IMG/VR virus record: IMGVR_UViG_3300037313_001331
Reading direction: 5' to 3' (one strand)
Length of the DNA stretch: 64,000 nucleotides
DNA from: a virus
Lineage: Duplodnaviria > Heunggongvirae > Uroviricota > Caudoviricetes
In this document: piece after piece, positions 10,952 through 63,850 of the stretch
Layout: each line of letters starts with the position of its first letter
Numbering within the stretch: position 1 is the first letter of the stretch
The notes under the pieces: model-generated
What the model was told of the DNA's origin: nothing
Seen by the model: the letters and a program-made list of their open reading frames with translations, nothing else
The model's database searches: none
Program-made: the position numbers and the translations under genes

Positions 10952-10990
10952 GTTGCGATGGGAGTGACTTTCTCGACCGGGCGTCGGCTA
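10952..10990 (-). promoter_or_regulatory. class B box copy 1
   Basis: GTTGCGATGGGAGTGACT plus GC hairpin CGACCGGGCGTCG; on the minus strand it precedes ATG 10929. Confidence 0.5.
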
Positions 10991-11211
10991 TGGTGGGCCT
11001 AGCCTGCGGGAGCCTAGGACCCGTGTGAGCCTGAGAAAAGTGGGCCTAGGACGGGCCTGAGCCTCATTGGTGTCCGAAATCTGTGCACGGACTTCGGACT
11101 AGTGAATTGTTCGGAGGTGACTCGGCGTATCTCCGAGTTTTTCACTACTCGGAGCGGTCAAGGCGAAGCCTATTCTCTGTCGAGGCACGCAGCCGTACCT
11201 CGCCGAGGGCC

Positions 11212-11502
11212 TCACGCCACCTTGGAGCCCTTGATCACGGTGAACCCGACCTTTGGCAGCGCCTTCAGCTCGACCTCCTCGACCTGCTGGAGCAGGAGCT
11301 GCGCACTGCCGATCTCCCAGCCTAGGCGCTCGAAGGTCCTGTCGATGGCCAAACGAAGTTCGGCCGCTGCAATCGGGGTCGGATCTGTGGTCGTGGACTG
11401 GATCGTCATGACCTGGAACGTGCCGTGGTGGTCCGTGTAGGCCACGCGCATGCTGAGGTTGGGCTCCGGGAAGCGCCCGGCGTCGATGTCGCGCTGGGGC
11501 AT
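11212..11502 (-). CDS. hypothetical protein (96 aa)
   Basis: GGTGGAG SD; start overlaps stop of the upstream 77-aa ORF. Confidence 0.4.
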   Translation of the reverse strand: MPQRDIDAGRFPEPNLSMRVAYTDHHGTFQVMTIQSTTTDPTPIAAAELRLAIDRTFERLGWEIGSAQLLLQQVEEVELKALPKVGFTVIKGSKVA

Positions 11503-11504
11503 GG

Positions 11505-11738
11505 CTACAACTCCACCGAGGCGTCGGTGACGCGCTCTGCCTTCAGGAGCTTCATCCCCATCGCCGGGAACGTGTGAGCCGCGCTGGCCCTCACTCCCTT
11601 GTCCAGCACGTCGGAATCGACCGTGGCGGTGCTGATGATGGTCCAGAGATGCCTGCTGCCGTTGTTGTCTTCGATCAGCGCTCTCAGGATGACTCGTTCG
11701 TTCGGGTACTGCGGATTCTCTTGCTTCGGACTACGCAT
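11505..11738 (-). CDS. hypothetical small protein (77 aa)
   Basis: C-terminal part of a longer Arg-rich ORF; manually chosen ATG. Confidence 0.3.
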   Translation of the reverse strand: MRSPKQENPQYPNERVILRALIEDNNGSRHLWTIISTATVDSDVLDKGVRASAAHTFPAMGMKLLKAERVTDASVEL

Positions 11739-13056
11739 GGGGACTTCAACTGCCTGGTGTACTGCTCGGAGGTGCCTCGGGCCAGGGAGCGCTGAGCCTA
11801 GGACGGGTGGATTCTCGGTCAGCCTCTGGTGGGCGGGTGGACATGAAACGGTAAGGATTGCCGATTGTGTGCGCGTCGTCACAGTCGGACGCACCTTTTC
11901 AGGACGTTTAAGGTAGGAGCCAGAACCCCTGGCGCCTGGAAGGTCGTTTCGATTGATCTCACGATTGGCGCCACCCCTATAAGCCAACTTACAGGTAGAC
12001 CCACACCTGGCCCCACAGCCAGACCCCTGCCTGTCCCTCTCTGCGGCATGTGATCCACCAGCCTGAGCCTCCCTATGGGTGAGCCTGTGCGTGTTGCCTA
12101 CCCTCCCCTTGGAGCATCTGCGAGCCTGGGTGTCTCTGTTCGTTGCCCGGCTCGTCCTGCCCCTCTTCCGTTCGGTGGTGCTACTGCCGGTGATCGCTCC
12201 GGGTGCTCTTCTGCTCACGACGCTTGCCCCTTTCCTCATAGGTGTTTCCTGCTGTATCTGCAGTCTCGGCGCTCGCTAGCTCACTGGCTGAGCCTGGGCT
12301 GTTCGGGGCCTGGTTCGGGTGTGGCGTTTCACCGGTTTGCGGGATGGGCTGCTCGCGCCATTCCCTTCTGGGAATCGGTGCAGCTCATTCCCTTTCGGGC
12401 ATTGCCGTGCGGTGCGCCTGGTGGTCGGCGGGCTTCTTGGGGCGCTCCAGCTTGTTGGGTTGGGGCTCGGGTGCTCGTTGCGTTGCGAATCGTCTGCCTT
12501 GCGCTCGGCGTGCGCTGCCTTCCCGTGCTTTATGCGGCGCTTTCTGTCTTCCCTGGTGATTTCTTCGGGGCGAAGCCGACATCTTCGACAGGTCCTGCAT
12601 ATAAGATGAATTGAGCGGACAAAAAGCCTTATAAATCAACAACTTACGAGCCTAGGCAGGAGTTGCACAAAATGAAGCCGCCCAACCGTGAAGTTGAGCG
12701 GCCCGAAGACTCGTTGGCATCACTCTCGGAGTCGGTTCACACACACGTGGTCGCAACACCGCAGTGTGGGCAGAGCCTGGTGCTTGTCAGGCGCTCTCCA
12801 CACCACCCAGGTCCACCTGCCCCACACTCAAGGGAGCTTCGGACCTGGCCTATGGGCGGGCCGTCGGGGCTCTTCACGTCCCCATGGCTAGCCACCGGGC
12901 AGGCGGCCTTCGTTCAATGACTCAAGGATTGCTGACGGATGTCAGGCGTGCCTGCTGTTCAGCGCCGCAGGCTTGCGGTGCCCCTTCTTGTGCTCTGGGG
13001 CTGGGATTCTCTTCGTCGTGTTCCTCAAGGTGTTGATGGCAAGTCGGATCAGCGCT

Positions 13057-13272
13057 TCATCCGGCACCTCCCTTCGCTTCCAGGGCTTTGTTGATGTTCT
13101 CAATGCGTTGGGTCCAACCGGCGGCTCGCATCGTGATCGTGCGGCGATGGTTCTCACGCACGTCCTCAGGCACTCGGCTTTCCAGCGTGCCGAGAAGTCG
13201 CCCCTCCTGGTCCAGATGGGCCTGGGCAACTCGGCGTTGAGCCAAGAGTTGCTCACGGGTGTAGTCGCTCAT
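13057..13272 (-). CDS. hypothetical protein (71 aa)
   Basis: ATG after GGGAG. Confidence 0.45.
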   Translation of the reverse strand: MSDYTREQLLAQRRVAQAHLDQEGRLLGTLESRVPEDVRENHRRTITMRAAGWTQRIENINKALEAKGGAG

Positions 13273-13977: not shown

Positions 13978-14171
13978 CAGGTCTTCCGGAACTCGCAGCG
14001 CGAGTAGGTCTTGCGGGCCTCGCCGCGGGCTTCCTTCATGGTCGCGAAGCGGTCGATGCGGCCGGTGTTGTGCAGCAGGAGCCAGGGCTCCGCGGGGTTG
14101 AACGTGTCGGCGCCCTTGGGCTGCAGGTTGATCATGGCAACGTGCTTGTCGTGCGAGTAGACGTGCAGCAT
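13977..14171 (-). CDS. hypothetical protein (64 aa)
   Basis: class B box plus GGGGAAAG immediately upstream of ATG. Confidence 0.45.
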   Translation of the reverse strand: MLHVYSHDKHVAMINLQPKGADTFNPAEPWLLLHNTGRIDRFATMKEARGEARKTYSRCEFRKT

Positions 14172-14184
14172 GTGCTTTCCCCGT

Positions 14185-14225
14185 GTTGCGATGGTTCTAC
14201 TGTGAGGTTCGAGCCCCGGCTGCAG
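14185..14225 (-). promoter_or_regulatory. class B box copy 2
   Basis: GTTGCGATGGTTCTACT plus GC-rich tail; precedes ATG 14171. Confidence 0.5.
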
Positions 14226-15309: not shown

Positions 15310-15521
15310 TGCGCTACCGCCGCGGTGATCTGGTGGACCGACACGCCCGCGGCCAGGCCGGCGGCGATGGTTTCCTGCACGGCCTTGTCAGCGCTCGGCT
15401 TGTACACCACGCACGGCAGCTGCTTTTGCAGCTCCAGCTGGCGACTATGGGTGGCGCGTGCCTTGCGGCTCACTGCGCGGCGCCGGGCCTCGATCTCTTT
15501 CTCGGTGGTCGGGGTGTACAT
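15306..15521 (-). CDS. hypothetical protein (71 aa)
   Basis: class A box, then GAGGAC, then ATG. Confidence 0.45.
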   Translation of the reverse strand: MYTPTTEKEIEARRRAVSRKARATHSRQLELQKQLPCVVYKPSADKAVQETIAAGLAAGVSVHQITAAVAQ

Positions 15522-15540: not shown

Positions 15541-15552
15541 GTCAGTGGTGAC
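15541..15552. promoter_or_regulatory. class A box
   Basis: GTCAGTGGTGAC; 20 nt before ATG 15521. Confidence 0.5.
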
Positions 15553-15601
15553 TTACCATTTCAGGCGGACTTTGCCCTGGGATGCCCGATCTATCGGGCG
15601 T

Positions 15602-15640
15602 GTTGCGATGGTTGAATCATCGCCCCGGGGCTGAGGCTGC
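15602..15640 (-). promoter_or_regulatory. class B box copy 3
   Basis: GTTGCGATGGTTGAAT plus GCCCCGGGGC palindrome. Confidence 0.5.
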
Positions 15641-17253: not shown

Positions 17254-17589
17254 GCTGCCTGCCTGTTCGTATGCTGAAGCCGGCCCAAAGCCTCGCGGAA
17301 TTCCACGTGCACCCGCTCGACGATGTCGCGGCCGGTGCCGCCGATGCGCCAAGCCACACGCTCTTCGACACCCGGGGCGTGACCATGCATCCAGTCGTAG
17401 ATGTCGGCGGTGCGGCCGTCCTCGAACAGCAAGGACCAGCGGGTCGTCACCTTGCCGTCACTGTCTTTCGGGTGGTGCGGCGTGCCGAAGGCGTATGCCA
17501 GCTGGAGCACCGTCGCCTGGATGGTGCCCTGCATGCTGGTGGGCCATTCGAGATCGAAGGCGCGGTCGTTGTGGGTCTGGAACTGCATG
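17250..17589 (-). CDS. hypothetical protein
   Basis: ATG about 20 nt downstream of a class B box; no SD. Confidence 0.45.
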
Positions 17590-17615
17590 GTGTGCGGTTG
17601 CGTGTGTTGCGATGG

Positions 17616-17650
17616 GTGAATGGTCACGCCCCGGGTGCGGCGCTGGTGGT
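17616..17650 (-). promoter_or_regulatory. class B box copy 4
   Basis: GTTGCGATGGGTGAATGGTCACGCCCCGGG; 20 nt before ATG 17589. Confidence 0.5.
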
Positions 17651-17829
17651 CAGCGCTTGTCGGGGCCGCGCGAGGGCTTGTTGCCGTTGCTGCGGGCCGG
17701 GGTGATGGCGACACCGGACTGCGTGCGGCGCTCGACCTCGCGCATGTGGGCGCGGTCCTCTTCCGTGATCGGAACCGAGGTGCAGGCGCAGAGGCTTGCC
17801 AGAGCCATGGTGAGCAAAACGGGTTTCAT
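17650..17829 (-). CDS. small lipoprotein (59 aa)
   Basis: manually translated MKPVLLTMALASLCAC signal and lipobox; AAGGGA SD; ATGA overlap with upstream gene. Confidence 0.45.
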   Translation of the reverse strand: MKPVLLTMALASLCACTSVPITEEDRAHMREVERRTQSGVAITPARSNGNKPSRGPDKR

Positions 17830-18092
17830 GTTTCCCTTTCAGTGGTGGTTGAGAGAACTGAATCGTTGTGCTCGGTGTTCGGCTCTGGGTCGGCTGCATT
17901 GCTGCGCTCGCGTGCAGCCTCGCAATCGAAGCCCAGCATCCACTGCATGCGGTCGAGGATCTGCGCGTTGGTGCGGTAGGGACAGGAGTTCCGCAGCTTT
18001 CCTTCGCGGCAGGCCTGTGCGCCTTCGGCACGCAATGCCATCTTCTCGTCGCGCCGAACCGCTTTGCGTGGGCGCCACTTGCTGACCGTCAT
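17826..18092 (-). CDS. hypothetical protein
   Basis: ATG after GGAGCGAAGTGA. Confidence 0.4.
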   Translation of the reverse strand: MTVSKWRPRKAVRRDEKMALRAEGAQACREGKLRNSCPYRTNAQILDRMQWMLGFDCEAARERSNAADPEPNTEHNDSVLSTTTERET

Positions 18093-19013: not shown

Positions 19014-19023
19014 TGACGGTTTC

Positions 19024-19045
19024 GGTCAGTGACTCAGCACTGACC
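19024..19045. promoter_or_regulatory. double class A box
   Basis: GGTCAGTGACTCAGCACTGACC; 11 nt before ATG 19013. Confidence 0.5.
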
Positions 19046-19246
19046 CATGAAAGTTGCGACAGTTGAATGTTCAGGGCGGGGTATCGGCTTGCGTCGAGCA
19101 CGCTGCGAGCAGCCACAGCGTTCCCGACACCAAGGCGCCGCCGGAACCGGCGAGCGCCAAGAATCCGTTGGGCCACCAGAAGCCGAAGATGCTCACGAGG
19201 GCGAGCATCACGGTGCCGGCCGCGAGCCTGTCTTGCAGTTGCAGCC

Positions 19247-20358: not shown

Positions 20359-20765
20359 CAGTTCTCCTCCACCAGGAACATCACCAGCACCACCTTGGGC
20401 GCTTCGACGAGGCCGTCCATGGCGAGCATGAACTCCCACTGGCCCACCGGGAAGTCGGTGTATTCGATGGCGCGATGCCAGATGCGTTCTTCGCCGAGCT
20501 TCACCTCCAGCAGCGCCGTGCGCCCCTGCAGAACCTGGATGTGAAAGCTCCATGATGTGCACCCGCCGTCATCCCAAGCCCGGCACAAGATCGGTGCGAC
20601 TTCGGTGGCGACGATGTCGAGGAGCCAGTAGGCACCGGCTGTGTCAGCGACCGCCTTCATGCCCTCGCTGAAGATGAAGCGGCGATTGAACGGGTGGCGG
20701 AAGCGGCCGTCCGATCCGCCGACGAACTGCGCCATCACGCGCTGAAGGGCACCTGCGTCAGCCAT
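20358..20765 (-). CDS. hypothetical protein
   Basis: ATGA overlap. Confidence 0.45.
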   Translation of the reverse strand: MADAGALQRVMAQFVGGSDGRFRHPFNRRFIFSEGMKAVADTAGAYWLLDIVATEVAPILCRAWDDGGCTSWSFHIQVLQGRTALLEVKLGEERIWHRAIEYTDFPVGQWEFMLAMDGLVEAPKVVLVMFLVEEN

Positions 20766-21135
20766 AGGTGATCTCTCCCAACAGGCCCACCTGCAGCACG
20801 ACATCGGCCACCTCCGCGTCCCAGTCGCCGTTCTCAGGATCGATGACGCTGTTCAGGACGTTGCCGCGAATGTCGGAGCGCACCTCCGCCTCGTTCGCGA
20901 GGATCTTGCGAATCCCGGTACGAATCGTCTCCAGGGTCGCGTCACCCCACTTGGTGGAGTCATCCTCGCGGTCCACGCAGCCGGCGATCTTGACGACGTT
21001 GGAGTCGTCATCCCGCTCCACGTCGTCACAGGCCAACCAGTAGGCGGAGCCGCCCTCGTAGCAGGCCGTGAGAAGGTCGCGGCACAGCTCGTCGGTCACC
21101 TCCAGCTGCACGTTGATGGTCTTGTCGGTGCTCAT
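20758..21135 (-). CDS. hypothetical acidic protein
   Basis: ATG 18 nt after a class B box. Confidence 0.5.
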   Translation of the reverse strand: MSTDKTINVQLEVTDELCRDLLTACYEGGSAYWLACDDVERDDDSNVVKIAGCVDREDDSTKWGDATLETIRTGIRKILANEAEVRSDIRGNVLNSVIDPENGDWDAEVADVVLQVGLLGEITYG

Positions 21136-21149
21136 TGCATTCGTGTGTC

Positions 21150-21195
21150 GTTGCGATGTGTGAATGGTCGCGGTGGGTGTTCGGCTGCGCGGGCT
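21150..21195 (-). promoter_or_regulatory. class B box copy 5
   Basis: GTTGCGATGTGTGAATGGTCGCGGTGGG; 18 nt before ATG 21135. Confidence 0.5.
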
Positions 21196-22435: not shown

Positions 22436-22447
22436 GTCAGTGCTGAC
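22436..22447. promoter_or_regulatory. class A box
   Basis: GTCAGTGCTGAC; 17 nt before ATG 22419. Confidence 0.5.
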
Positions 22448-22900
22448 TTACCACGATCCGCGAGAAGCGACCCTGTGCCCGTCTTCGTAGACGGTGCGCC
22501 CCTCGGGTGGGTGTGAAACCAAATGATCGCCCTGTGAGTCAGGACTGAGTGATTCCATTGTAGAGACCGCCGAAGGCGTTGCCCGGTCGGCGTACAGGCT
22601 GGGCGTGCGCGAATTGGCGATCTCCACCAGCTGGCGCCAGTACCGCTTCATCTTGTTCCGGGTGATCGCCAGCTGCTTCGGGGTCAGCGACTCGTACCGG
22701 AGGTAGCCGCGCACCATGTCCGTGAGGAACGGGGCATCGAACCGGGAGAAGCCGACGCCATTCACCTCCCGGGTGTGGTGGCCGGCCTGTTCGGCGGCCG
22801 TCTGGCGGTTGTAGATGGCGAGCAGGGCCTTGTACACGGCCTGGTCGCTTCGCTCCAGGAGTGCCTGGATGCTCTCCTTCGTGTGAGTGGCAGCGGTCAC
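22448..22900 (-). CDS. hypothetical protein
   Basis: GTG after GAAGGG, 15 nt after a class B box; the ORF-track TTG start lies inside the box. Confidence 0.45.
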   Translation of the reverse strand: MTAATHTKESIQALLERSDQAVYKALLAIYNRQTAAEQAGHHTREVNGVGFSRFDAPFLTDMVRGYLRYESLTPKQLAITRNKMKRYWRQLVEIANSRTPSLYADRATPSAVSTMESLSPDSQGDHLVSHPPEGRTVYEDGHRVASRGSW

Positions 22901-22915
22901 TTGTTGCCCTTCGGT

Positions 22916-22975
22916 GTTGCGATGGGTCAACTGTGCGAACCGGGGTTCGGCGCTGGTGCGGCTGCTGTCGATGCG
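22916..22975 (-). promoter_or_regulatory. class B box copy 6
   Basis: GTTGCGATGGGTCAACTGTGCGAACCGGGGTTCGGCGC; 15 nt before GTG 22900. Confidence 0.5.
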
Positions 22976-24204: not shown

Positions 24205-24342
24205 AGGGCCTCCAAAAATTGGGAACTTGCAGAGCCCGCGAACCGCCCGGTTCGCAGTGTTCTCAGTGTTCGCGCTGACCGTTGGCGTGTGTCTTCAGCA
24301 CCAGGCTGTCTTCGCTCTCACCGACCGCCGCACTCGCGTGCT

Positions 24343-24390
24343 GCAGTGGTTGAACTGTCGGGCTCGGGGTTCGGCGCCGGTGCGACCGGC
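24343..24390 (-). promoter_or_regulatory. class B box copy 7 (degenerate, in the attP region)
   Basis: GCAGTGGTTGAACTGTCGGGCTCGGGGTTCGGCGCCGGTGCG resembles the 3' half of copy 6. Confidence 0.35.
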
Positions 24391-24467: not shown

Positions 24468-24727
24468 CGTTCCCACCACGAGGCCCCACTGTTCCCACCA
24501 CCCCGGGCCGTTCCCACCATCGTTCCCACCTTTTTGCCCGGATGCAGGCGGACGGCAGCGAATAGGCGCGCAAAGAAAAAAGCCCCGTTTCCAGAGGAGA
24601 ACGGGGCTTTTCAGGATGGTTGCGGATCGTGATGAACGATCTGCTGGCGGAGCCGGAGGCTGTCCAATAGCAAGGATTGGCGCGGGTTCCCGGGGTATCA
24701 TTCCCACTTTCCCACCGCCATTCCCAC
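24468..24727. repeat. eight direct TTCCCAC(C) repeats, candidate integrase arm-type sites (attP)
   Basis: TTCCCACC at 24470, 24492, 24511, 24523 and TTCCCAC(C) at 24690, 24701, 24710, 24720, all upstream of int. Confidence 0.5.
24574..24612. terminator. bidirectional intrinsic terminator
   Basis: A-tract, then AGCCCCGT / ACGGGGCT 8-bp stem, then T-tract. Confidence 0.55.
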
Positions 24728-24737: not shown

Positions 24738-25964
24738 ATGCCCCGTCACACCCTCGTCGCCACCACTTTGAAGGCGAAGATCGAAGCCGCACTGGCGGCT
24801 GCCAAGGACTCCCAGAAGGCCCAGAAGCTGGGCGACGGCGACGGGCTGATGCTGGTGGCCCGCCCCAGCGGCGATGCCTCGTGGGTGCTGCGGTACCGCC
24901 AGGATGGTGCACGAAAGGACCTGACCCTGGGCCGGTGGCCAACGCTGACCCTGAAGATGGCGCGGGACGAAGCGGACAAGGCCCGCAAGTCTGCCGCCAC
25001 CGGCGTCGACCCGGTCGAGGCGAAGAAGGCGGCCCGCAAAGCGCGCCCCGGCGTGGCATCGGGCCCGGACACGGTCAGGCGGCTCTTCGAGGACTGGCGG
25101 GCCAAGGAAGAGGTCAGCGCCGTCTACGCCGGCAACATCGAGGCGGCGTTCCTGAAGGACGTGCTGCCTGTCATCGGCGCCGTGCCACCCGAGGACGTGA
25201 CCCGCGAGCAGATCCTGAAAATCCTGCGGACCATCGAAGGCCGGGGCGCCGTCGACATGGTCCGCCGGGTTCGCATGTGGATGCGGCAGATGTTCGAGTT
25301 CGGCATCGAGGACGAGAGCCGCCCTGCCCTGCGCATGTCGCCGGTGCCGATGGGGACGCTGAAGTCCTTCAAGAAGTCACGCAAGAAGCGGCACTACGCG
25401 GCCATCAAGGACGCCAAGGAGGTGCCGGCGCTGATGAAGGCGATCAAGGGCATCACGGACAACTTTGTCATCCGGAACGCCTTCCTGCTGTCGGCGCACA
25501 CGTTCCAGCGGCCGACCGAGATTCGCGAGGCGACCTGGGACGAGTTCGACCTGGACGCAGGCATCTGGCGCATCCCCGCGGAGCGCATGAAGCTGGCCGG
25601 CGAGCACTGGGTGCCGCTGTCGCGCCAGGTGGTGGAGATCCTGCGCGTGCACAAGGGCGTGGTGGGAGATCAGGGCTGGCTGTTCCCGGGCCGGAAGTAC
25701 GGCCAGTCCATCTCCGAGGGCACGCTCACCGGCCGCCTGAACAACATGGGGTTCGAGGGCCGTCACACGCCTCACGGGTTCCGCGCGATGGCGCGGACCA
25801 TCGGTGAAGAGGTCCTGCACATCGACGCCAAGTACCTGGAGAAGCAGCTTTCACACGAGGTCGATGTGAGCGGGCTGCGGGGCGCCTACAACCGGGCGGA
25901 GTACTGGGACCAGCGGGTCAAGATGATGCAGAAGTGGTCGGACTGGCTGGACGCTCAGACATGA
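24738..25964 (+). CDS. int: tyrosine integrase (P4-like, N-terminal arm-binding domain)
   Basis: N-terminus GDGDGLMLVARPSGDASWVLRYR; C-terminal HGFRAMARTIG...RAEYWDQR catalytic region. Confidence 0.85.
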   Translation: MPRHTLVATTLKAKIEAALAAAKDSQKAQKLGDGDGLMLVARPSGDASWVLRYRQDGARKDLTLGRWPTLTLKMARDEADKARKSAATGVDPVEAKKAARKARPGVASGPDTVRRLFEDWRAKEEVSAVYAGNIEAAFLKDVLPVIGAVPPEDVTREQILKILRTIEGRGAVDMVRRVRMWMRQMFEFGIEDESRPALRMSPVPMGTLKSFKKSRKKRHYAAIKDAKEVPALMKAIKGITDNFVIRNAFLLSAHTFQRPTEIREATWDEFDLDAGIWRIPAERMKLAGEHWVPLSRQVVEILRVHKGVVGDQGWLFPGRKYGQSISEGTLTGRLNNMGFEGRHTPHGFRAMARTIGEEVLHIDAKYLEKQLSHEVDVSGLRGAYNRAEYWDQRVKMMQKWSDWLDAQT

Positions 25965-31256: not shown

Positions 31257-31349
31257 GGTGTCCCTCGAAAAGTTGATGTGTGCATGGTCGTGCGCAGCAC
31301 TCGGCAAGTGCTCTGGACGACCGGCCCGCCCATCACGCGGGCCGATCAA

Positions 31350-34846: not shown

Positions 34847-34880
34847 GTCATCACTGACTGTCGAACTCATTATAGGGAGC
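34847..34880 (-). promoter_or_regulatory. conserved -10-like box plus class A box
   Basis: minus strand GCTCCCTATAATGAGTTCGACAGTCAGTGATGAC. Confidence 0.5.
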
Positions 34881-38429: not shown

Positions 38430-38507
38430 TGGGGACGGCGGCAGGACTCGAACCTGCGACCAAGTGCCTGTTCGGCACGATTGCTCTACCGCTGAGCTAC
38501 GCCGTCC
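38430..38507 (-). tRNA. tRNA-like gene, His-type acceptor (G-1:C73, encoded CCA) but non-canonical anticodon arm
   Basis: canonical D arm and T arm, 7-bp acceptor plus extra 5' G; anticodon region GTGCC-GAACA-GGCAC has a 5-nt loop or G33. Confidence 0.55.
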
Positions 38508-40238: not shown

Positions 40239-40274
40239 CTCAGCACTGACTTAGTCGTTTGCATTATAGGGAGC
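40239..40274 (-). promoter_or_regulatory. conserved -10-like box plus class A box variant
   Basis: minus strand GGGGCTCCCTATAATGC-N10-GTCAGTGCTGAG. Confidence 0.45.
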
Positions 40275-50859: not shown

Positions 50860-50885
50860 ATTATAGAGAGTTAGTCAGTGATGAC
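50860..50885 (-). promoter_or_regulatory. class A box plus TATAAT
   Basis: minus strand GTCATCACTGACTAACTCTCTATAAT; the box spans the SleB-like stop codon. Confidence 0.45.
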
Positions 50886-57112: not shown

Positions 57113-57139
57113 CACATTATAGTGTGTGTCAGTGGTGAC
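57113..57139 (-). promoter_or_regulatory. class A box plus TATAAT
   Basis: minus strand GTCACCACTGACACACACTATAATGTGAGG upstream of the SSB-like gene. Confidence 0.5.
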
Positions 57140-57142
57140 TGA

Positions 57143-57652
57143 CTATTCGGACGACTTCGCAGCGCCGCCAGACATCGCGTCCAGCATCCGCTCGCGATTG
57201 GCCTGGTTGACAGCGACCCGCAGGCCACCCTCCTTCTCCTTCGCTGCGTCCCGGGCGATCTGCAGGAGCATGTCCTTGCGGTGCTCGAAGGATCGCTCAG
57301 CGACTTCGGCCAGGCGGTATTCCTGCTGAGCGTCGATCAGCTGCGCGTAGGCGCGACGGTACCGGGCGTCCAGCACCAGCGCGGCACGAATCTGCCCCTC
57401 GGTGGTCTTGGGGTTTTCTTCCTTCAGCTTCAGACGGTATTCGCCATCCAGCTTGCCTTCGAGGATCTCGACCGCCACCTTGTACCGCTCGTACTGGCGC
57501 TTCGCCCGCACGGTCCGCGTGGCGTAGAACACGTACAGCGCGGAGTGCTGCGCCATGTTCCCGCTCAGGTCGGTCAGGTCGATGGAAATGTCCTTCTTCA
57601 GCTGCTCCGGGTCGACGTATGCCGTCATCGCGGTTTCTGCGGCTTCGCTCAT
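57143..57652 (-). CDS. hypothetical protein
   Basis: AGGAGAG SD; ATGA overlap with the dnaE stop. Confidence 0.5.
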   Translation of the reverse strand: MSEAAETAMTAYVDPEQLKKDISIDLTDLSGNMAQHSALYVFYATRTVRAKRQYERYKVAVEILEGKLDGEYRLKLKEENPKTTEGQIRAALVLDARYRRAYAQLIDAQQEYRLAEVAERSFEHRKDMLLQIARDAAKEKEGGLRVAVNQANRERMLDAMSGGAAKSSE

Positions 57653-60600
57653 GTCAGTAGCTCTCCTAGTTTCTCGAACGTGTTCTCGATCAGCCGGACC
57701 TTCGAGGGGTCATGGAAGACTGATCCGGGGTGAATGCCGAAGATGACGGTTGCATCCAGGTCGGCGCGATAGATGACCTTGCCGGCCAGGTCCGCCGGCG
57801 TGCCCTTGATGCCCGGCGCGAACCAGCGCACCGCGTTGCTGCCCATCGCGATGATGATGGGCGGCTTCAGAATCTCGATCTCCTGCTCCAGGTACTTGGA
57901 GCATCCGATGATCTGCTCGTTGGTCAGGGCCTTCTGCTCTTTCGGCTTCGACACCTTCACCAGCGACGTGTAGTAGCCGTCGGAGGCCCGGAGGCCCACG
58001 TCCTTCAGAGCCGCCTTCACCGCTTCGGAGGCCTTGCCTTCCAGCATCTTGCCGGCGCGCTCCTCTTCCCAGCTGGGTGTGTCGAACACCATCATGAACC
58101 GCGGCTTGTCGCCCATGCGCGGCAGCGGGTGCGGCTTGCCCTTGAGCGAGCACCCCTCACATGCGCGGGCCTCCTCGACCAGGCGGGTGATCTTGATCTT
58201 GGCCAAGTGCTCCGCATTCAGCTCGCGGTCGGGGCGCACCATTTCGACGGTGAAGCCCGGCACCAGTGCAATGCGGTCTTTCAACCGGTCGGGGTGCGTC
58301 GCGGGCTTGCCCTCACCGGTGATCGAGTGGAGTGCCCCGACCTTCTCCAGGTTCTCCAGGTGCTTGCTGTTGACGGCGGTCCGCCCCAGCACCTCCTTCT
58401 GGGTCTCCTGGTCCAGCCCGCGGATGTGCGCCGGCACCTCCACGATCTTCACCTTGGTCTTGAGCGGCACTTCCTTCGTGCTCACCGGCACCCAGGTGAA
58501 TCTGCCGCCCACGTGGGCGCGCAGCTTCTCGATGGCAGCGGCCACGCCCGAGCTGATGCCCTTGATGGCCTGCAGGGGCGCGTACAGCTTGTCCTCGCCC
58601 TCGATCTCAACCCGGGCGCTCGAACGGTTCAGGTCAGGCGGCAGGACCTGCAGCTTCTTCCCCTGGGCATCAAGCACCAGGCCCGCCAGCTTCTCGTCCT
58701 TGTCGACCACCGTCATCGCCGCGGCGAAGAATTCGGCGGGGTAGTACACCTTCAGCCACATCGTCACCCAGCTGATGAGCGAGTACTCGTAGGAGTGCGA
58801 CTTGTTGAAGGAGTATGCCGCGTAGCCCTCGATGGAGGTCCACAGCGACTCGGCCTTGTGCTCTTCCCATTCGGAGTGGTCGACGCAGCCCTTGATGAAC
58901 TTGTCCTTGAACTCGGCCATCTTCTCGGCGTCCTTCTTGCCGATGGCCTTTCGCACACCGTCTGCTTCGCCCGGCGTGAAGCCCGCGAGCACCCGGCAGA
59001 CCTGCATCACCTGCTCCTGGTACGCCATCACCCCGTAGGTTTCAGACAGCACCGGCTCCAGCTTCGGGTGGTCGTAGTACGGCCGCGTGGCTCCCTGCTT
59101 CACCTGGACGTAGCGGTCACAGAGGCCGGCGTCCAGCGGGCCCGGCCGGAAGAGCGCGGTTGCGGCGCAGATGTCGTCGAACGTGAGCGGCCCGCCCAGT
59201 GCCAGCTGCTTCAGCAGGTTCTTCATGCCGCCGCCCTCGAACTGGAACACGCCGGTGGTGTCGCCCTTCGCGAATGCCTCCAGCACCCGCTTGTCGTCAA
59301 GCGGCAGGGAAAGCATGTCGATGGTCTTGTGGTGACGCTCGCGGATGTACTCCAGCGCCGTCTCGACCATGTCCAGAGTGCTGAGGCCCAGAATGTCGAT
59401 CTTGATCAGGCCAAAGTCCTCGACCTTGGTCTTGTCCCACTGCACGATCGGCAGGGTGCTGCCATCCTTGTCACCGCGGGTGGACACCACGGCCCGGTTC
59501 ACCACCGGCTCGCCGGCGACGACCACGCCCGCGGCGTGTTGCGACAGCGAGCGGTTGGCGCCCTCCAGGCGCAGCGCATAGTCCCACAGGATCGGCCGCT
59601 CGTTCTTGAACTTCTCGATGTCGGGCACGCGTTCGGCGGACTCGGTCAGGCTCAGCGAGACACCGTGCTCCTTTTCCATCTGCTTCGAGCAGGCGTACTC
59701 CCATGGATCCAGGTCATGCAGGCGCGCGGTGTCGCGCAGCGCCGACGCCGGGCCCAGAGTGGAGAAGTTGACGATGCCGGCAACGCGGTCGTGCCCCCAC
59801 TTGTTGCGGATGTAGTCGATGACCATGTGGCGCTTGCCGGACATGAAGTCGAGGTCGGCGTCGGGAAGGTCCACGCGGTCGGGGTTGATGAAGCGCTCGA
59901 ACAGCAGGCCGAAACGGATGGGGTCGATGTCAGTGATGCCCATCAGGTAGGCGACCAGAGACCCGCCCACGGAGCCGCGCCCGGGGCCGACGCGCACGCC
60001 GTTTTCCTTGCTCCAGTTGACGATGTCCTGCACCAGCAGGAAGTAGCCGCTGAAGCCCATCTTCTTCAGGACGCCCAGCTCGAATGCCAGGCGCTCCCGG
60101 TACGGTCCGTCCAGGTCCTCGCGGCTCGGGGCGTGGCCCCAGACCTCGCGACCGAAGCGTTTGCCCCAGCCGGCCTTCACTGCGGCCAGCAGCGCGGTGA
60201 ACTCGTCGTCAGCCATCTTGGGCATGGTCGGCTGCAGCTTCTTGAAGACGAAGCTGCAGCCGGCCGGGATCAGCTTGGCGTTCTCGACCAGCGAGAGCAC
60301 CCGACCGCTGCCAACCTGGTCGCGCAGCTTCTTGCACTCCTCCACCATGTCCTTCGCTGACAGCAGGCACATGTTGCGCACGTAGGGGCGCGGCAGAAAG
60401 ATCGAATGGGCGGACGTGTTGCTGCTGATGGCGCGCAGCACGTCGGTGGCATTCGCGTCCTCGGGCGTGGCGTAGAACGCCGGCCGAGTGACGATCATGG
60501 TCTGCAGGTAGGCGTCGCCCACCTCGAACGCCTTGCGGTTCAGACGGTTGAACAGCGGCGTGTCCAGCGCCACCAGCTCGATGATGTAGTCGCGGCCGAA

Positions 60601-61074
60601 CCGGGCGGACAGCTGCGCGCTGATCGAGGTGGCGTCCTCGCGGTGCCACAGGTTGTAGATGTCGCCGGTCGTGACGATCACGTCCTCCAGCGCCAGCACG
60701 TCGGCCAGACCCAGGCGGGCGTGGTAGTAGTAGTGCTCGGGCGTGAGCGACTTCGTGAGGGCCGCGAACAGACTCTGCATGCCCTTGTCGGACTTCACGT
60801 AGACCTTCAGGCGGTAGCCGCCGTTCTCGCGGTCCTTGAGCTTCGCCGTCGGATCGTCCACCACCTGGATGGTGCACCCGACAATGGGCGTGATGCCGGC
60901 CTTCTTGCATTTCTCGGCGAAGAACGGCATCGACGCGACGCTCATGTAGTCCGCGAGCGCGATGTGCGTGTAGCCCAGCTCCTTCGCGCGGTCGACGATC
61001 TTGCCGACCTGGAAGCTGGACTCGCCCAGCGAGAAGTCGGAGCGAACCGACAGTGCGATCTGCAGCGGATTCAA
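57649..61074 (-). CDS. dnaE: DNA polymerase III alpha (DnaE) fused to a C-terminal family-4 UDG-like domain
   Basis: PHP domain and palm GPGRGSVGGSLVAYLMGITDIDP; C-terminal ~190 aa with GIHPGSV (HPS-like) motif; TTG start after GGAGAAG, overlapping upstream TGA (TTGA). Confidence 0.85.
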   Translation of the reverse strand: MNPLQIALSVRSDFSLGESSFQVGKIVDRAKELGYTHIALADYMSVASMPFFAEKCKKAGITPIVGCTIQVVDDPTAKLKDRENGGYRLKVYVKSDKGMQSLFAALTKSLTPEHYYYHARLGLADVLALEDVIVTTGDIYNLWHREDATSISAQLSARFGRDYIIELVALDTPLFNRLNRKAFEVGDAYLQTMIVTRPAFYATPEDANATDVLRAISSNTSAHSIFLPRPYVRNMCLLSAKDMVEECKKLRDQVGSGRVLSLVENAKLIPAGCSFVFKKLQPTMPKMADDEFTALLAAVKAGWGKRFGREVWGHAPSREDLDGPYRERLAFELGVLKKMGFSGYFLLVQDIVNWSKENGVRVGPGRGSVGGSLVAYLMGITDIDPIRFGLLFERFINPDRVDLPDADLDFMSGKRHMVIDYIRNKWGHDRVAGIVNFSTLGPASALRDTARLHDLDPWEYACSKQMEKEHGVSLSLTESAERVPDIEKFKNERPILWDYALRLEGANRSLSQHAAGVVVAGEPVVNRAVVSTRGDKDGSTLPIVQWDKTKVEDFGLIKIDILGLSTLDMVETALEYIRERHHKTIDMLSLPLDDKRVLEAFAKGDTTGVFQFEGGGMKNLLKQLALGGPLTFDDICAATALFRPGPLDAGLCDRYVQVKQGATRPYYDHPKLEPVLSETYGVMAYQEQVMQVCRVLAGFTPGEADGVRKAIGKKDAEKMAEFKDKFIKGCVDHSEWEEHKAESLWTSIEGYAAYSFNKSHSYEYSLISWVTMWLKVYYPAEFFAAAMTVVDKDEKLAGLVLDAQGKKLQVLPPDLNRSSARVEIEGEDKLYAPLQAIKGISSGVAAAIEKLRAHVGGRFTWVPVSTKEVPLKTKVKIVEVPAHIRGLDQETQKEVLGRTAVNSKHLENLEKVGALHSITGEGKPATHPDRLKDRIALVPGFTVEMVRPDRELNAEHLAKIKITRLVEEARACEGCSLKGKPHPLPRMGDKPRFMMVFDTPSWEEERAGKMLEGKASEAVKAALKDVGLRASDGYYTSLVKVSKPKEQKALTNEQIIGCSKYLEQEIEILKPPIIIAMGSNAVRWFAPGIKGTPADLAGKVIYRADLDATVIFGIHPGSVFHDPSKVRLIENTFEKLGELLT

Positions 61075-61280
61075 GGCGTCTTCTCCAGCGGCACGACGAC
61101 ACCCTTGAAGATGTCCGCGTACTTCACCGCGCTGCCGATTGACATCGGCACACTGAACCGAGGTGGAATGCAGTCGTCGTAGCGAACGCGTGCTTTTGGC
61201 CACCAGTGAGGCTCGTGCCCGCGGAGACCGTTGTGACAAAAGAAACCCATTCGCCCGAGAAGAAGCCAGATCTTGAACAT
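61071..61280 (-). CDS. small ORF translationally coupled to dnaE
   Basis: ATG 5 nt after class A box plus ACACA; no SD. Confidence 0.35.
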   Translation of the reverse strand: MFKIWLLLGRMGFFCHNGLRGHEPHWWPKARVRYDDCIPPRFSVPMSIGSAVKYADIFKGVVVPLEKTP

Positions 61281-61285
61281 TGTGT

Positions 61286-61297
61286 GTCAGTGGTGAC
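61286..61297. promoter_or_regulatory. class A box
   Basis: minus strand GTCACCACTGACACACA directly followed by ATG 61280. Confidence 0.5.
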
Positions 61298-61306
61298 TGA
61301 GTCTTT

Positions 61307-61912
61307 TCATGATAGTGCCCGCGTGGGGTTGGATGTGAAATGCAACGCCCCATTCAGCTCACAAACCAGTTGCCCGGCGAGGAAGATCGCCACCGCATCG
61401 GAGACCTTCACCTTGGCGCTACTGGGCGCCATGCCCAGCTCTGCCTGGAAGGCGAATGCCAAGCGCGCTCGGGACCATCCGCCCTCCAGCAGGGCCCGCA
61501 CCATGATGTGTCGCCAGCCCTTCGCCGCGGGGTTTCGGCCCGCCTGCATTTCCGCACGCACGTGGTCGAACCAGCCACACTCGAAGCCCCGACGGATCTG
61601 ACTCTGCACGCGCTTGGGCGCGGCGTCGATCACCTGCTGTTCGCCCGCGGTGATGCTGACGCGCGTGACGCCCCGGGTGCTCGCCGTGATCGTTCTGTCG
61701 GGGACCTCCCCACCCTGCTTCGCTGGCGAACCCTGCAGCAGCTTCGCTGCGAGCACAAGGTCCTGGCGTGCACGACGCACGCCAGCTTCATCGGGAAGCT
61801 TCGCCAGCACCCGACGTGCAACCGACACGCACGCCGCCGAGTGCGAACAGGCGCCACACGTTGTCGATGTGGCGCTGACGTAGACCGGAGAACCGTAGCA
61901 GGTGGGCGTCAA
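61307..61912 (-). CDS. Cys-rich protein coupled to the sigma factor (candidate anti-sigma)
   Basis: TTG start overlapping the sigma stop (TTGA); CYG...TTCGACSHSAAC cluster; function inferred from context only. Confidence 0.4.
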   Translation of the reverse strand: MTPTCYGSPVYVSATSTTCGACSHSAACVSVARRVLAKLPDEAGVRRARQDLVLAAKLLQGSPAKQGGEVPDRTITASTRGVTRVSITAGEQQVIDAAPKRVQSQIRRGFECGWFDHVRAEMQAGRNPAAKGWRHIMVRALLEGGWSRARLAFAFQAELGMAPSSAKVKVSDAVAIFLAGQLVCELNGALHFTSNPTRALS

Positions 61913-62592
61913 GCGGCTTTGTCCGAGAGCGTCTTGCGCAGGCCTCCGATGGGTGCCCACTGCACGTCGAACTTGGCGAGGATCTCGCGCTTGACCTGGC
62001 GCAGCTCTTCGCCAGCCAGACCGATCTCGGTACACAGCTCGCGAAGCTTGCGGCCACCGGTGCCGCGCTCCTTCTCGTCGAGCATCAGTGCCGTCACCAG
62101 GCGGCGAGCGCCCGGGGACAAGGATGCCAGGCGCTCACGCACGGCATCGCGGTGGTCGAGGCGGTCCTCTTCGGAATCATCCATCTGGTCGCCGGCCAGC
62201 AGCTCCAACGGGTCGCCCTCCGCCTCTGCGCCCACGACTTCCTCGTAGCTGACCAGGCCCAGCTCGGCACGCTCCTTCTCGGGCTTCTCGATGTAGGCGT
62301 TGAAGAAGCGCCACGCGACGGTCTGACAGTAGCTGGAGAAGTAGGTGCCGCGGTCGGCGGACCAGCTGCGAGCCGCCTGGACGTAGCCCAGGTTCAGCAC
62401 GCTCATGCAGTCGTCCAGCTCCATGCCCAGCCCCATGGCCTCCACCCGCCGGAATGCCTTGATGGCCATGCCCTTCAACATGCCCTGGACGGACTCGTAG
62501 GAGCCATCGTTCGCGTAGCGCTTGTTCTTCTCCTCCCGAACGCGAGTGGTGCGCGGCTTCAGGACAACGACGGTGGGGGAAACTGCTTGCAT
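61909..62592 (-). CDS. sigma-70-family RNA polymerase sigma factor
   Basis: region-2-like RGTYFSSYCQTVAWRFFNAYI and region-4 HTH LRELCTEIGLAGEELRQVKREILAKF; AAGGA SD. Confidence 0.7.
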   Translation of the reverse strand: MQAVSPTVVVLKPRTTRVREEKNKRYANDGSYESVQGMLKGMAIKAFRRVEAMGLGMELDDCMSVLNLGYVQAARSWSADRGTYFSSYCQTVAWRFFNAYIEKPEKERAELGLVSYEEVVGAEAEGDPLELLAGDQMDDSEEDRLDHRDAVRERLASLSPGARRLVTALMLDEKERGTGGRKLRELCTEIGLAGEELRQVKREILAKFDVQWAPIGGLRKTLSDKAA

Positions 62593-62616
62593 GGGACTGA
62601 TCCTTGAGTCGAAAAA

Positions 62617-63786
62617 TTACTTGCCGAAAACGCGCTTGGCGACCTGGTCCGCGACTTCGCGGTCCACCGTCGACAGACGGTTGATGAAGGCCTTCTGCAG
62701 GCCCAGGTGGTAGTTGTTGTGGGCGTACCCGTACATGCCAGCGTTGATCAGCGAACGCGGCGAGATCGGGTTGGACAGCTTGGACGAGTCGAACTCCTGG
62801 CGCACTCGGGTGGCAAAGTCGACGAGCAGCTTCGCGTCCTCGGGCGGGATGTCCGACTGCAGGGCGACCAGTCGCTCCTCCAGCGCCTTCTCCATGTAGG
62901 GCATCTTCTCGACGATGCCGAAGCGCTCGAAGTTGGCGGCGTTCTGGATCGTGGTGCCCTGGTACAGGCCGGTCTCATCGCCCTGCCCGTTCGTGTTGCC
63001 CGTTGCGACGATGCGGAAGTCCGGATGCGGCTTCACGACCCGCATCGAGGTGTCAGCTTCCTTGATGAACAGCGGCTTGCCTTCCAGCACCGCCTGGTAC
63101 ACGGCGAGCACCTCCGGGCGCCCGAAGTCGTACTCGTCGGCGATGTACAGCCACCCGTACTTCATCGCCATGGGCAACGGCCCGTACTCGAAGAACGTGT
63201 GACCATCGCGCAGACGCCACCCGCCGACGATGTGCTCCTCTTCCATGTTGGCGGTGTGCTGCACACGCACGGTGGGGCGTCGCGTGCGTGCCGCGACCTG
63301 CTCGAAGATGGTGGTCTTGCCGGTACCCGAGTGACCCCAGAGGAACGTCGGGATGTTCATCTCCAGCCCGAACATCAGCGACTTGAGCACGTCCAGGTTG
63401 AAGACGTAGTTGGGGTCGACTGCCGGCACCATGTCGGAGAACTCGGGCGTGTCCGGCATGACGGAGATTTTGATCGGCTCGCCCTTGCTGCTGAGCGCCG
63501 CCTTGACCTTGCCCAGGCCGAAGACTTCGTGGAAGTTTTTCTTCATGGACGTGGCCACCGGGGTGGAAGATGTGTCAGTACTGACTGAGCTTGCAAGCGC
63601 TCGCTTTTCCAGCTCTGCCTTTGCGATGTCGCTCAGCAGCGGCGCACCGGGAAACTCCTTCTCGTAGTCCTTGAGGGTGTACCCCTCGGCGGCGTGGTCC
63701 TTCGCGATGTGCAGCTGAATCGAGTGGACCTTTGCGCCACACTTCATGCACTTGATCTTGGTGTCTTCCGTGGTGCCCTTGCTCAT
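62617..63786 (-). CDS. AAA+ ATPase (MoxR/CobS-like) with N-terminal zinc ribbon
   Basis: Walker A LWGHSGTGKTT, Walker B LYIADEYD, N-terminal CMKCGAKVH; ATG after GGAGGA. Confidence 0.8.
   Translation of the reverse strand: MSKGTTEDTKIKCMKCGAKVHSIQLHIAKDHAAEGYTLKDYEKEFPGAPLLSDIAKAELEKRALASSVSTDTSSTPVATSMKKNFHEVFGLGKVKAALSSKGEPIKISVMPDTPEFSDMVPAVDPNYVFNLDVLKSLMFGLEMNIPTFLWGHSGTGKTTIFEQVAARTRRPTVRVQHTANMEEEHIVGGWRLRDGHTFFEYGPLPMAMKYGWLYIADEYDFGRPEVLAVYQAVLEGKPLFIKEADTSMRVVKPHPDFRIVATGNTNGQGDETGLYQGTTIQNAANFERFGIVEKMPYMEKALEERLVALQSDIPPEDAKLLVDFATRVRQEFDSSKLSNPISPRSLINAGMYGYAHNNYHLGLQKAFINRLSTVDREVADQVAKRVFGK
63574..63585. promoter_or_regulatory. class A box inside the AAA+ ATPase CDS
   Basis: GTCAGTACTGAC within codons for SSVSTDTS, about 30 nt before an in-frame Met. 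Confidence 0.4.
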
Positions 63787-63817
63787 CAAATCCTCCGGTT
63801 CACAATGTTTGTCGCGG

Positions 63818-63850
63818 GGTTGCGATGGTTGAATCTTCGCCCCTACATCT
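63818..63850 (-). promoter_or_regulatory. class B box copy 8
   Basis: GTTGCGATGGTTGAATCTTCGCCCC; about 30 nt before the AAA+ ATPase ATG. Confidence 0.5.

Follow-up and report, generated by a model that had tools for sequence, protein, structure and literature searches.

A Putative Promoter Class of Ten Co-Oriented Intergenic Elements in a Temperate Phage Lineage That Carries a Sigma-70-Family Gene

Ten Sites Upstream of Minus-Strand Genes

We analyzed a stretch of 64,000 nt (hereafter the window) from IMG/VR record IMGVR_UViG_3300037313_001331, which is part of a 110,897-bp metagenomic phage contig (JGI 3300037420 Ga0395906_0000170). The window contains a repeated intergenic element, referred to here as class B, that is recognized by the 16-mer GTTGCGATGGNTGAAT and lies upstream of genes on the minus strand; a first-pass annotation had suggested that it might be a dedicated promoter or a signal acting on the transcript. 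Nine sites are defined by a conserved box, CATCGCAAC, and a tenth was added by comparison with related phages. Eight of the box-defined sites and the tenth lie within 10.9–24.4 kb, and the ninth box-defined site lies at 63.8 kb. All ten are co-oriented with the genes that they precede, each of which is a minus-strand open reading frame (ORF) with a high GC content at third codon positions (high GC3), and none is on the other strand.

The 16-mer occurs exactly three times in the window as opposed to 0.00 occurrences expected, and seven times if up to three mismatches are allowed (≤3), whereas the 10-mer CCATCGCAAC is present six times on the minus strand and not once on the plus strand. A 24-nt weight matrix built from the aligned copies identifies nine minus-strand sites with scores of 23–35 bits, and the maximum for the same matrix on the plus strand is 4.7 bits. 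The next best match scores 9.5 bits, and this gap, together with the exact 16-mers, shows that the repeated core is non-random. A matrix based on four related phages adds the tenth site, at 17846–17883, which scores 22.9 bits against a maximum of 20.7 in 20 shuffles; with its degenerate box and a score barely over the shuffle maximum, it is the weakest member of the set. A further 17 kb of this genome, outside the window on either side, contained no additional class B site. In the first-pass list of copies, 17616 and 63818 are to be replaced by 17606 and 63819, and the copies at 10952 and 24343 are genuine though diverged; the supposed degenerate copy at 42672 is not a member, being in neither weight-matrix match list, and two copies, one at 19053 (GTTGCGACAGTTGAAT) and the degenerate one at 17848 (17846–17883), had been overlooked. 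The uniform orientation holds throughout, with all sites on the minus strand. The design recurs in every related phage examined.

We number the candidate promoters 1–10 and give their sequences on the minus strand. Site 1 (63817–63854) reads TCC, 13 nt, GAAGAT, tcaac, CATCGCAACCC, and has its predicted +1 at 63826. It is located 40 nt upstream of the ATG at 63786 of an AAA_5 ATPase gene that is followed by a sigma-like gene, lies just downstream of a putative promoter/operator of a second class, class A (GTCAGCGCTGAC tg TATGAT), and has an ortholog in eight related phages. At the other nine sites the upstream trinucleotide is GCC, again followed by 13 nt. Site 2 (24338–24375) continues with GACAGT, tcaac, and the diverged box CACTGCAGCAC, and its predicted leader extends over 143 nt to the ATG at 24204 of a 270-aa gene (phrog_3932). 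Site 3 (22914–22951; CACAGT, tgacc, CATCGCAACAC) has a leader of 23 nt to the GTG at 22900 of a 150-aa gene (phrog_21015), and site 4 (21148–21185; GACCAT, tcaca, CATCGCAACGA) one of 22 nt to the ATG at 21135 of a 125-aa gene (phrog_2355). The 46-nt leader of site 5 (19051–19088; GAACAT, tcaac, TGTCGCAACTT), which ends at the ATG at 19014, includes the class A palindrome GTCAGTGCTGAG. Site 6 (17846–17883; AACGAT, tcagt), with the degenerate box TCTCTCAACCA, is followed after a 26-nt leader by the ATG at 17829 of a 59-aa ORF, and site 7 (17604–17641; GACCAT, tcacc, CATCGCAACAC) after 25 nt by the ATG at 17588 of a 112-aa gene without an obvious Shine-Dalgarno sequence. Site 8 (15600–15637; GATGAT, tcaac, CATCGCAACAC) has a leader of 88 nt to the ATG at 15521 that contains the stem-loop GCCCGATAGATCGGGC and the class A palindrome GTCACCACTGAC. 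Site 9 (14183–14220; CACAGT, agaac, CATCGCAACAC) has a 21-nt leader with the Shine-Dalgarno sequence GGGGAA before the ATG at 14171 (64 aa), and site 10 (10950–10988; GAAAGT, the 6-nt spacer cactcc, CATCGCAACAC) has a 30-nt leader to the ATG at 10929 of a 52-aa gene that is also called in public assemblies. A further sequence at 31268–31305 (minus strand) reads GCC, 13 nt, GACCAT, gcaca, CATCAACTTTT, and then a Shine-Dalgarno sequence and ATG; its spacing is that of class B, its score does not reach the matrix cut-off, and it could be a weak eleventh site.

Promoter Architecture

The sites share the design (G/T)CC(GA), 13 nt counted from CC, [G/C]AnnAT, TCAMC, and CATCGCAAC(AC), in which the gap between hexamer and box is 5 nt except for 6 nt at 10960. 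Aligned without gaps, the nine box-defined sites have an invariant A (2.1 bits) and an invariant T (1.6 bits) at the spacing of A-11 and T-7, and all nine also have CC exactly 13 nt upstream of the hexamer. A set of 28 sites drawn from four phages gives the consensus cGCCga, N11, GACAAT, T.Aat, CaTcgcAAC with 2.2 bits each at A-11 and T-7, and those sites in this matrix that were found by the pattern GCC, 13 nt, GAC[AC][AC]T inflate the conservation of the corresponding positions. An A at -11 and a T at -7, as in a -10 hexamer, are thus present in the nine sites, the 28 sites, and the orthologous alignment described later. We did not find a TTGACA-like -35 element 16–18 bp upstream of the -10, the information at -35 to -30 in the 28-site matrix being approximately 0; instead, a conserved upstream element lies at about -28 to -24, that is, 3–4 bp nearer to the -10 than a -35 box would be. 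At position -12 most sites have G; all nine box-defined sites and nearly all sites of the relatives have either G or C there, the tenth site has A, and T does not occur. The first-pass statement that the element lacks any likeness to sigma-70 promoters is therefore right about the -35 box and wrong about the -10, because a -10-like hexamer with an invariant A and T lies 5–6 nt upstream of CATCG.

A C-A step is located 6–7 nt past the hexamer at most sites and, because a standard 6-nt discriminator is assumed, the A of CATCG at this step is the predicted +1; the predicted leaders are 21–46 nt long at eight sites and 88 and 143 nt at the other two. The box ends 13–38 nt before the start codon at eight sites, including 17846–17883, and at greater distances at 15610 (80 nt) and 24348 (135 nt). 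Because the box has a fixed register with the hexamer but lies anywhere from 13 to 135 nt before the start codon, it would be a part of the promoter and start site and not of the ribosome-binding region. The same variation makes a translational operator, one of the functions suggested originally, unlikely, and excludes a start-associated sequence, for which a fixed short distance to the start codon is expected. We also rejected the possibility that the box is itself a -35 or -10 element with transcription starting further downstream, as the start codon is only 13–17 nt past the box at four sites; a Shine-Dalgarno-like run lies between box and start codon at three of those four and at the site at 10960. 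Extracytoplasmic function (ECF)-type, sigma-54, sigma-32, and sigma-28 promoters, judged by eye against consensus sequences, do not fit in spacing or sequence.

We interpret the 16-mer as the putative start-site end of a ~38-bp promoter, of which this phage would have ten instances; the design is in itself of an ordinary kind, and the class appears to be undescribed. With considerable confidence we regard the class B copies as probable promoters from which transcription would start at the A of CATCG.

Gene Context, Terminators, and RNA Structure

The nine clustered sites precede ORFs of 52–270 aa that are mutually unrelated, and those that match PHROG families match families without known function. 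A consensus scan identified no canonical sigma-70 promoter (0) in the region 9–26 kb, and intrinsic terminators were found at 24596–24583, 23363–23342, 12704–12675, and 9036–9019. The box promoters follow two of these, 24596–24583 and 23363–23342; the latter, a canonical terminator on the minus strand consisting of GGGCGGGGCTTCGGCTCCGCCC and then TTTTT, ends the one-gene unit of site 2 and precedes site 3.

The first-pass annotation had treated a GC-rich hairpin as a part of the element. GC-rich palindromes are present in some copies only, for example GCCCCGGGGC at 15610 and CGAACCCCGGTTCG at 22924, and they sit at variable positions in the 13-nt gap. A terminator or hairpin reading of these palindromes was rejected, as the sites have z scores of -0.6 to +1.5 relative to shuffles, no U tract, and no covariation. 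RNAalifold found no consensus pair (0 pairs) among the sites, and a terminator scan did not pick up any class B site although it found canonical terminators in the same region. In an Rfam scan of the window only tRNA was detected. With neither a conserved structure nor extra stability nor a U tract, the hairpin does not hold as a component of the element, and the suggestion of an antiterminator or a processing hairpin is not supported, given the lack of conserved structure and of an Rfam match.

Conservation in Related Phages

In phages L096/L257, a protein is 65% identical to the product of the gene at 20758–21135, and L257 has seven sites of the same design with an upstream flavor of its own, TGCGCC or TGTGCC. 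A 110-kb relative, in which the ortholog is 47% identical, has its own repeat family in the region homologous to the accessory gene cluster; found without prior knowledge of class B, this repeat reads CTGCCGAGACC...GACAAT, TGAAT, yATCGAAAC and also GCCGAGACC...GACAAT, N5, yATCGAAAC, and its hexamer and CCGA element are much better conserved than its box. Filtered tblastx yielded a single homology, to L096, and unfiltered tblastx gave only noise.

All eight of the sigma-bearing phages that we compared (8/8), among them a prophage of Variovorax paradoxus (CP045644), have the element ahead of the AAA_5/sigma operon, and the AAA_5 proteins of these phages have identities of 52–65%. In an alignment of the region upstream of AAA_5 from five phages, the invariant promoter columns are a T, the upstream CC, A-24, A-11, A-8, T-7, and T-6; outside the promoter, invariance is confined to the start codon and to a handful of scattered columns upstream. 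The first base of the hexamer is G or C, never T, in all eight orthologs, and L247, in which an unrelated 198-aa protein takes the place of the sigma, has TATAAT at the orthologous position.

These comparisons bear on the possibility that the copies are a dispersed repeat without function, be it a miniature mobile element or a duplicated intergenic remnant. Ten copies of ~45 nt with decaying flanks in one genome, upstream of genes that are mutually unrelated, would suit such a repeat, yet the copies are strictly in one orientation and only intergenic, with none in a gene or on the other strand, and they lack terminal inverted repeats. Their conservation is position-specific (A-11, T-7, and CC) and not uniform, and the design is kept at an orthologous site across phages whose proteins are 52–65% identical. 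We consider a non-functional repeat very improbable and disfavor it. Paralogy of the downstream genes was rejected as the source of the repeats, since the encoded proteins are unrelated. The fixed register with the hexamer and CC(GA), the co-orientation with genes, the restart after terminators, and this conservation together favor the original proposal of a dedicated promoter, which we regard as the best supported function for the element as judged from its sequence.

The Same Box Outside This Phage Group

A scan of IMG/VR with TTCANCCATCGCAAC returned mostly chance matches within genes and a distinct intergenic subset. In this subset the box lies exactly 5 nt past TAnnnT, TTGACA-like hexamers are found 16–18 nt further upstream, and most copies are followed by an A/C-rich leader, a Shine-Dalgarno sequence, and a start codon. 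Under strict criteria, 8 of 95 non-redundant viral-contig matches have a sigma-70-like -35/-10 pair with the -10 ending 5 nt before CATCG, whereas the same count gives 0–2 when taken at any of 48 other offsets; because the search pattern sets the final T of the hexamer, the chance expectation is about fourfold higher and still below one. TAnnnT at the 5-nt offset occurs in 15 of the 95 viral-contig matches. Among isolated phages, BLAST of box oligonucleotides found only Acidovorax phage AP1 (TTGACA, 17 nt, TACAGT, tcacc, CATCGCAGC), and plasmids yielded nothing of use. Occurrences of the pattern in bacterial genomes are nearly always coding (peptide FTHRN), and the three promoter-type cases are all from Comamonadaceae, namely Delftia, a Comamonadaceae bacterium, and Variovorax sp. 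The Variovorax case precedes a pirin/isochorismatase operon divergent from a LysR regulator gene, and one of the others is upstream of a gene for the toxin hicA. When the proteins encoded at box-bearing loci were compared, only an Xre-type repressor recurred, at 5 of 22 loci.

In a phage of ~42 kb (L041), three near-identical ~70-bp promoter cassettes at 2735, 3928, and 5367 (minus strand) precede unrelated small genes. The cassette reads TTGCAC, 17 nt, CATAAT, tcacc, CATCGCAACAC, GGGGAACGC, ATG, and a dyad, GTGTTGC, 14 nt, GCAACAC, extends across the -10 and the start site with a fold z score of -5 to -6. Isolated relatives of this phage, Stenotrophomonas phage B2 and Acinetobacter phage Scuro, are without the box.

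The 14-nt start-site block is common to unrelated phages and to host genes of one bacterial family, and its conservation is unusual. The first-pass view that no such phage element has been described needs qualification in this light: the literature searched gave no contradiction, with nothing relevant found on the box sequence or on Variovorax phage promoters, but the box is also present at promoters of unrelated phages and of Comamonadaceae genes. It seems unlikely, though worth stating, that TCAMC-CATCGCAAC might be a previously unrecognized start-site or 5'-leader element specific to Comamonadaceae and their phages, a core-promoter or 5'-end RNA signal past the -10, that accompanies any upstream design (a canonical -35, LysR activation, or CCGA), is read by the transcription or translation machinery of the host or a widespread factor, and has been captured repeatedly by unrelated phages.

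A related account, to which we likewise give low probability, is that the box works after initiation as the 5' end of the mRNA (AUCGCAACAC...), through stability, ribosome recruitment, or an RNA-binding protein, with the promoter elements being incidental. The box would then be the first 8–10 nt of every transcript, and it is kept with three upstream designs (a canonical -35, the LysR type, and GCC with 13 nt); in other phages the leaders lack structure, are rich in A and C, and have a Shine-Dalgarno sequence 12–35 nt away, and in a few copies the box is paired with a complement close by (CATCGC-aacaac-GCGATG in L065/L003). A conserved structure or an Rfam family is lacking, however, and conservation of the box extends to the discriminator TCAMC, which lies outside the predicted transcript. 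Moreover, the box of the 110-kb relative is much less conserved than the hexamer and CCGA, and the loci that carry the box have no partner protein in common, the Xre-type repressor being present at only 5 of 22.

Strong conservation from -6 to +10 is unusual in a plain promoter and would also be compatible with a DNA operator for a regulator that binds on the start site, either a repressor of these units or a Comamonadaceae host factor. In L096/L257 the box is one arm of a dyad (GGTTGCGATG, 7 nt, CATCGCAACA) with a fold z score of -2.5, the dyad of L041 reaches -5 to -6, and all three bacterial promoter-type matches come from the one family. Most copies are nevertheless asymmetric, and the dyad is missing from most sites in the window (z score of about 0). 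A separate operator-like repeat that is clearly palindromic, GTCAGYRCTGAC, is already present in the phage, and no conserved DNA-binding protein co-occurs with the box in the available fragments. We accordingly consider an operator function of the box improbable. A dyad or operator across the -10 region (GTTGCGATG, 7 nt, CATCGCAAC), tried as a general feature, was rejected; it is real in L096/L257 and L041 and is not general.

A Sigma-70-Family Protein as Candidate Reader

The second gene of the operon behind site 1, at 61909–62592 on the minus strand, encodes a protein of 227 aa that the first-pass annotation had named a sigma factor. It matches phrog_351 "RNA polymerase sigma factor" (E value 5e-5) and Pfam Sigma70_r2 with 19 bits, which is under the cut-off of 24. 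A profile search against PDB sequences retrieved almost only sigma factors aligned on region 2, and many of its 83 homologs have PF04542 and sigma-factor names assigned by the Joint Genome Institute (JGI). The AlphaFold model has a predicted local distance difference test (pLDDT) score of 82.6, and its top 50 Foldseek matches in the PDB are all sigma factors, aligned over ~220 columns. This evidence from PHROG, Pfam, homologs, the PDB profile, and the structure model confirms that ORF 61909–62592 belongs to the sigma-70 family and bears out its annotation at the family level. In the relatives, the sigma gene is located directly behind AAA_5. The AAA_5 (MoxR/CbbQ-like) ATPase gene at 62617–63786 (minus strand) and an upstream CobT_C/VWA gene (L249 7706–9901) form a pair that is conserved in all relatives immediately ahead of the sigma gene. 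In alignments of the 227-aa protein, the aromatic pair WW of the sigma-70 motif ATWWIRQ is replaced, which suggests altered -10 recognition.

We tentatively favor the phage sigma as the reader of class B. It is favored because the sites lack a TTGACA -35, have no T at position -12, and have the upstream element 3–4 bp nearer to the -10; because the phage has a separate TATAAT promoter class and class B stands before the sigma operon in every sigma-bearing relative; and because the sigma-less L247 has TATAAT at the orthologous position. In the mechanism that we propose, RNA polymerase with a sigma-70-family sigma would melt the DNA at the hexamer (-12 to -7) and initiate at the A of CATCG, with the box, positions -1 to +10, comprising the start site and the first nucleotides of the mRNA. 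Nine promoters would drive small, mostly single- or few-gene units of the accessory cluster next to the integrase gene (10.9–24.4 kb), and the tenth would drive the AAA_5/sigma operon, so that the phage sigma would feed back on its own operon.

The host primary sigma, with or without a phage activator, is the other possible reader, and we hold it to be a less probable one. In the specific form in which the sites are host sigma-70 promoters, weak and constitutive or needing an activator at CCGA, and the phage sigma serves another class such as late genes, the proposal likens class B to T4 middle promoters and to the activator-dependent late promoters of P2 and Mu; we regard it as possible but on the whole doubtful. 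While A-11 and T-7 are the signature of -10 recognition by sigma-70, -12 is never T, and the phage has its separate, near-consensus TATAAT promoter class. The upstream element, 13 bp from the -10, is similar in placement to the MotA box of T4 middle promoters, yet we found no candidate for an activator. Consensus sigma-70 promoters of other phages are followed by an identical box, which is also present at the activator-type LysR/pirin promoter in Variovorax, and one-gene units with their own promoter and terminator next to an integrase gene resemble "morons," which are usually expressed by host polymerase; the presence of class B before the sigma operon in every sigma-bearing relative instead fits autoregulation.

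Several points weigh against a class B promoter read by the phage sigma, in addition to the inflated matrix positions mentioned earlier. The same box and A/T pattern occur with canonical sigma-70 -35/-10 pairs in unrelated phages and also at the host pirin operon and, because the box accompanies canonical promoters elsewhere, the -10/start-site half suits the host sigma and the phage sigma is unneeded for it. Phage sigmas usually drive late genes, and no class B site was found over the 7 kb that precede the terminase and portal genes. Relatives were fetched via the sigma or its neighbor gene, which biases the test for co-occurrence, and the sigma-less contrast is a single phage (L247, n=1). 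Copies within the genome may share descent, in which case their upstream similarity is partly inherited and not selected, and scanning for class B covered ~81 of the 111 kb of the genome. Finally, both promoter function and start site are read from the DNA sequence. Taking these points into account, we hold the explanation as a whole, a ~38-bp promoter class with the phage sigma as its favored reader, to be probable with moderate confidence.

The Class A Palindrome

The 12-bp palindrome GTCAGYRCTGAC is probably the class A element of the first-pass annotation. There are about twenty intergenic copies, often within or 13 nt downstream of TATAAT-like hexamers; examples are at 63864–63875, 57128–57139, 50874–50885, 40239–40250, 34847–34858, and 22436–22447, and further ones at 19033–19044, 15541–15552, 9335–9346, 3605–3616, and 1289–1300. 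The palindrome is combined with a TATAAT-like hexamer in GCTCCCTATAAT at 40250 and 34858, and it is conserved upstream of AAA_5 in relatives. It looks like a repressor operator of this temperate phage. At 19061 and 15610 it is located between the class B box and the start codon, with a partial copy after the box at 24348, and the order promoter, palindrome, start codon is the one expected if class B is a promoter and the palindrome a repressor operator. At L254 16040–16280, ~2.5–2.7 kb beyond window position 1, an AT-rich tract, the class A palindrome GTCAGCGCTGAT, and a terminator-like hairpin lie before a putative small-terminase gene.

Comparison with Known Systems

T4 middle promoters depend on sigma appropriation by MotA/AsiA, with a MotA box, TGCTTtA, located ~12–13 bp upstream in replacement of the -35. 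Class B likewise combines a sigma-70-type -10 with an upstream box in the place of the -35, and its spacing of CC(GA), 13 nt, and hexamer is invariant, but its upstream box is CCGAra and its start-site box is without a T4 counterpart; none of the ~30 window proteins scanned against Pfam or PHROGs, a non-exhaustive set, resembled MotA or AsiA. Autoregulated promoters of ECF-type sigmas consist of GGAAC, 16–17 nt, and CGT. The similarity to these is a cognate-looking promoter directly before the sigma operon in 8 of the 8 sigma-bearing relatives examined, whereas motif and spacing differ, the latter being shorter, no anti-sigma gene was identified, and the neighbors are CobT and AAA_5.

Start-associated sequences of Cluster K mycobacteriophages keep a fixed distance of a few nucleotides to the start codon, and the stoperators found in Cluster A mycobacteriophages are repressor sites without a fixed relation to a -10 element. 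Class B resembles both as a short asymmetric motif in many copies and one orientation just upstream of genes. Unlike start-associated sequences, it varies in its distance to the start codon (13–135 nt) and is fixed in its distance to the hexamer; unlike stoperators, it is tied to a -10-like hexamer, and the palindrome GTCAGYRCTGAC is the better operator candidate in this phage.

The closest parallel to class B, in logic though not in sequence, is with promoters read by phage-encoded sigma factors. These have been described for phiEco32, which encodes gp36, and for Salmonella phage 7-11 (Guzina and Djordjevic 2015, PMC4331800), where the 7-11 motif is TG-TGATGT-TATA, tgTGATGTtata (PMC4331800). 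As in those phages, the phage studied here has a sigma-70-family gene of its own and a low-copy, co-oriented, well-conserved intergenic motif that is -10-like and lacks a canonical -35, and the motif was likewise found by comparison of intergenic regions and corroborated in a related phage. In contrast, class B (CCGA, N11, GAnnAT, N5, CATCGCAAC) has no resemblance to the 7-11 motif, has a second upstream element, and has a conserved block that spans the start site. It also serves accessory and replication genes, with none found before structural genes, and its sigma dependence is a prediction only.

The Phage Lineage and Other Features of the Genome

A tyrosine integrase (phrog_1, E value 2e-53) is encoded at 24738–25964 on the plus strand, divergent from the class B site at 24338–24375, and a related prophage is found in the Variovorax paradoxus chromosome CP045644 (GCA_009498455.1), at around 3.926–3.94 Mb and beyond, adjoining pheST, ihfA, and a MerR gene (L261). 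The integrase and this prophage indicate that the lineage is temperate and infects Comamonadaceae; the host of the uncultured ~111-kb phage, whose lineage is known from sequence alone, is likely to be Variovorax-like bacteria. Replication genes encode a DNA polymerase III alpha fused to a UDG domain, a gp32-like protein, RecA, SbcCD-like proteins, and ribonucleotide reductase. The polymerase is ~41% identical to those of ~110-kb Rhizobium, Stenotrophomonas, and Pseudomonas phages and of SSU5-like phages, and megablast with 15 kb of the window matched no isolated phage, none being close at the DNA level. The UDG-superfamily domain is at the C terminus of the polymerase (57649–61353, minus strand), and in one relative (L262 11285–15604) an HNH_3 ORF splits the gene into a polymerase part and an HHH/UDG part.

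Other features lie apart from the class B sites. A tRNA gene is located inside the phage genome at 38433–38506 (minus strand; Rfam RF00005, 48.9 bits). The gene at 2327–2551 (minus strand), which corresponds to 11030–11254 in the public assembly L254 and is flanked by two ParB_N genes, encodes a 74-aa product that matches Pfam Acb2_Tad1_hairpin, an anti-CBASS/anti-Thoeris sponge fold. A stretch of ~1.3 kb at ~11738–13057 (L254 524–1843) is without a gene call in public assemblies and contains the terminator at 12704–12675 (minus strand), which has a 13-bp stem; this gene-free stretch may encode a non-coding RNA.

Implications

For a lineage of temperate phages with genomes of 111 kb, the class B sites map out the putative promoters of the accessory-gene cluster, and the analysis proposes a cognate sigma/promoter pair that is directly testable thanks to the related prophage in a sequenced Variovorax paradoxus. 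The shared 14-nt start-site block is not explained by current promoter models. If the phage sigma does read these sites, the unusually close placement of the upstream element to the -10 would help to show how divergent sigmas contact promoters, and the pair would offer a compact orthogonal expression part for high-GC Betaproteobacteria.

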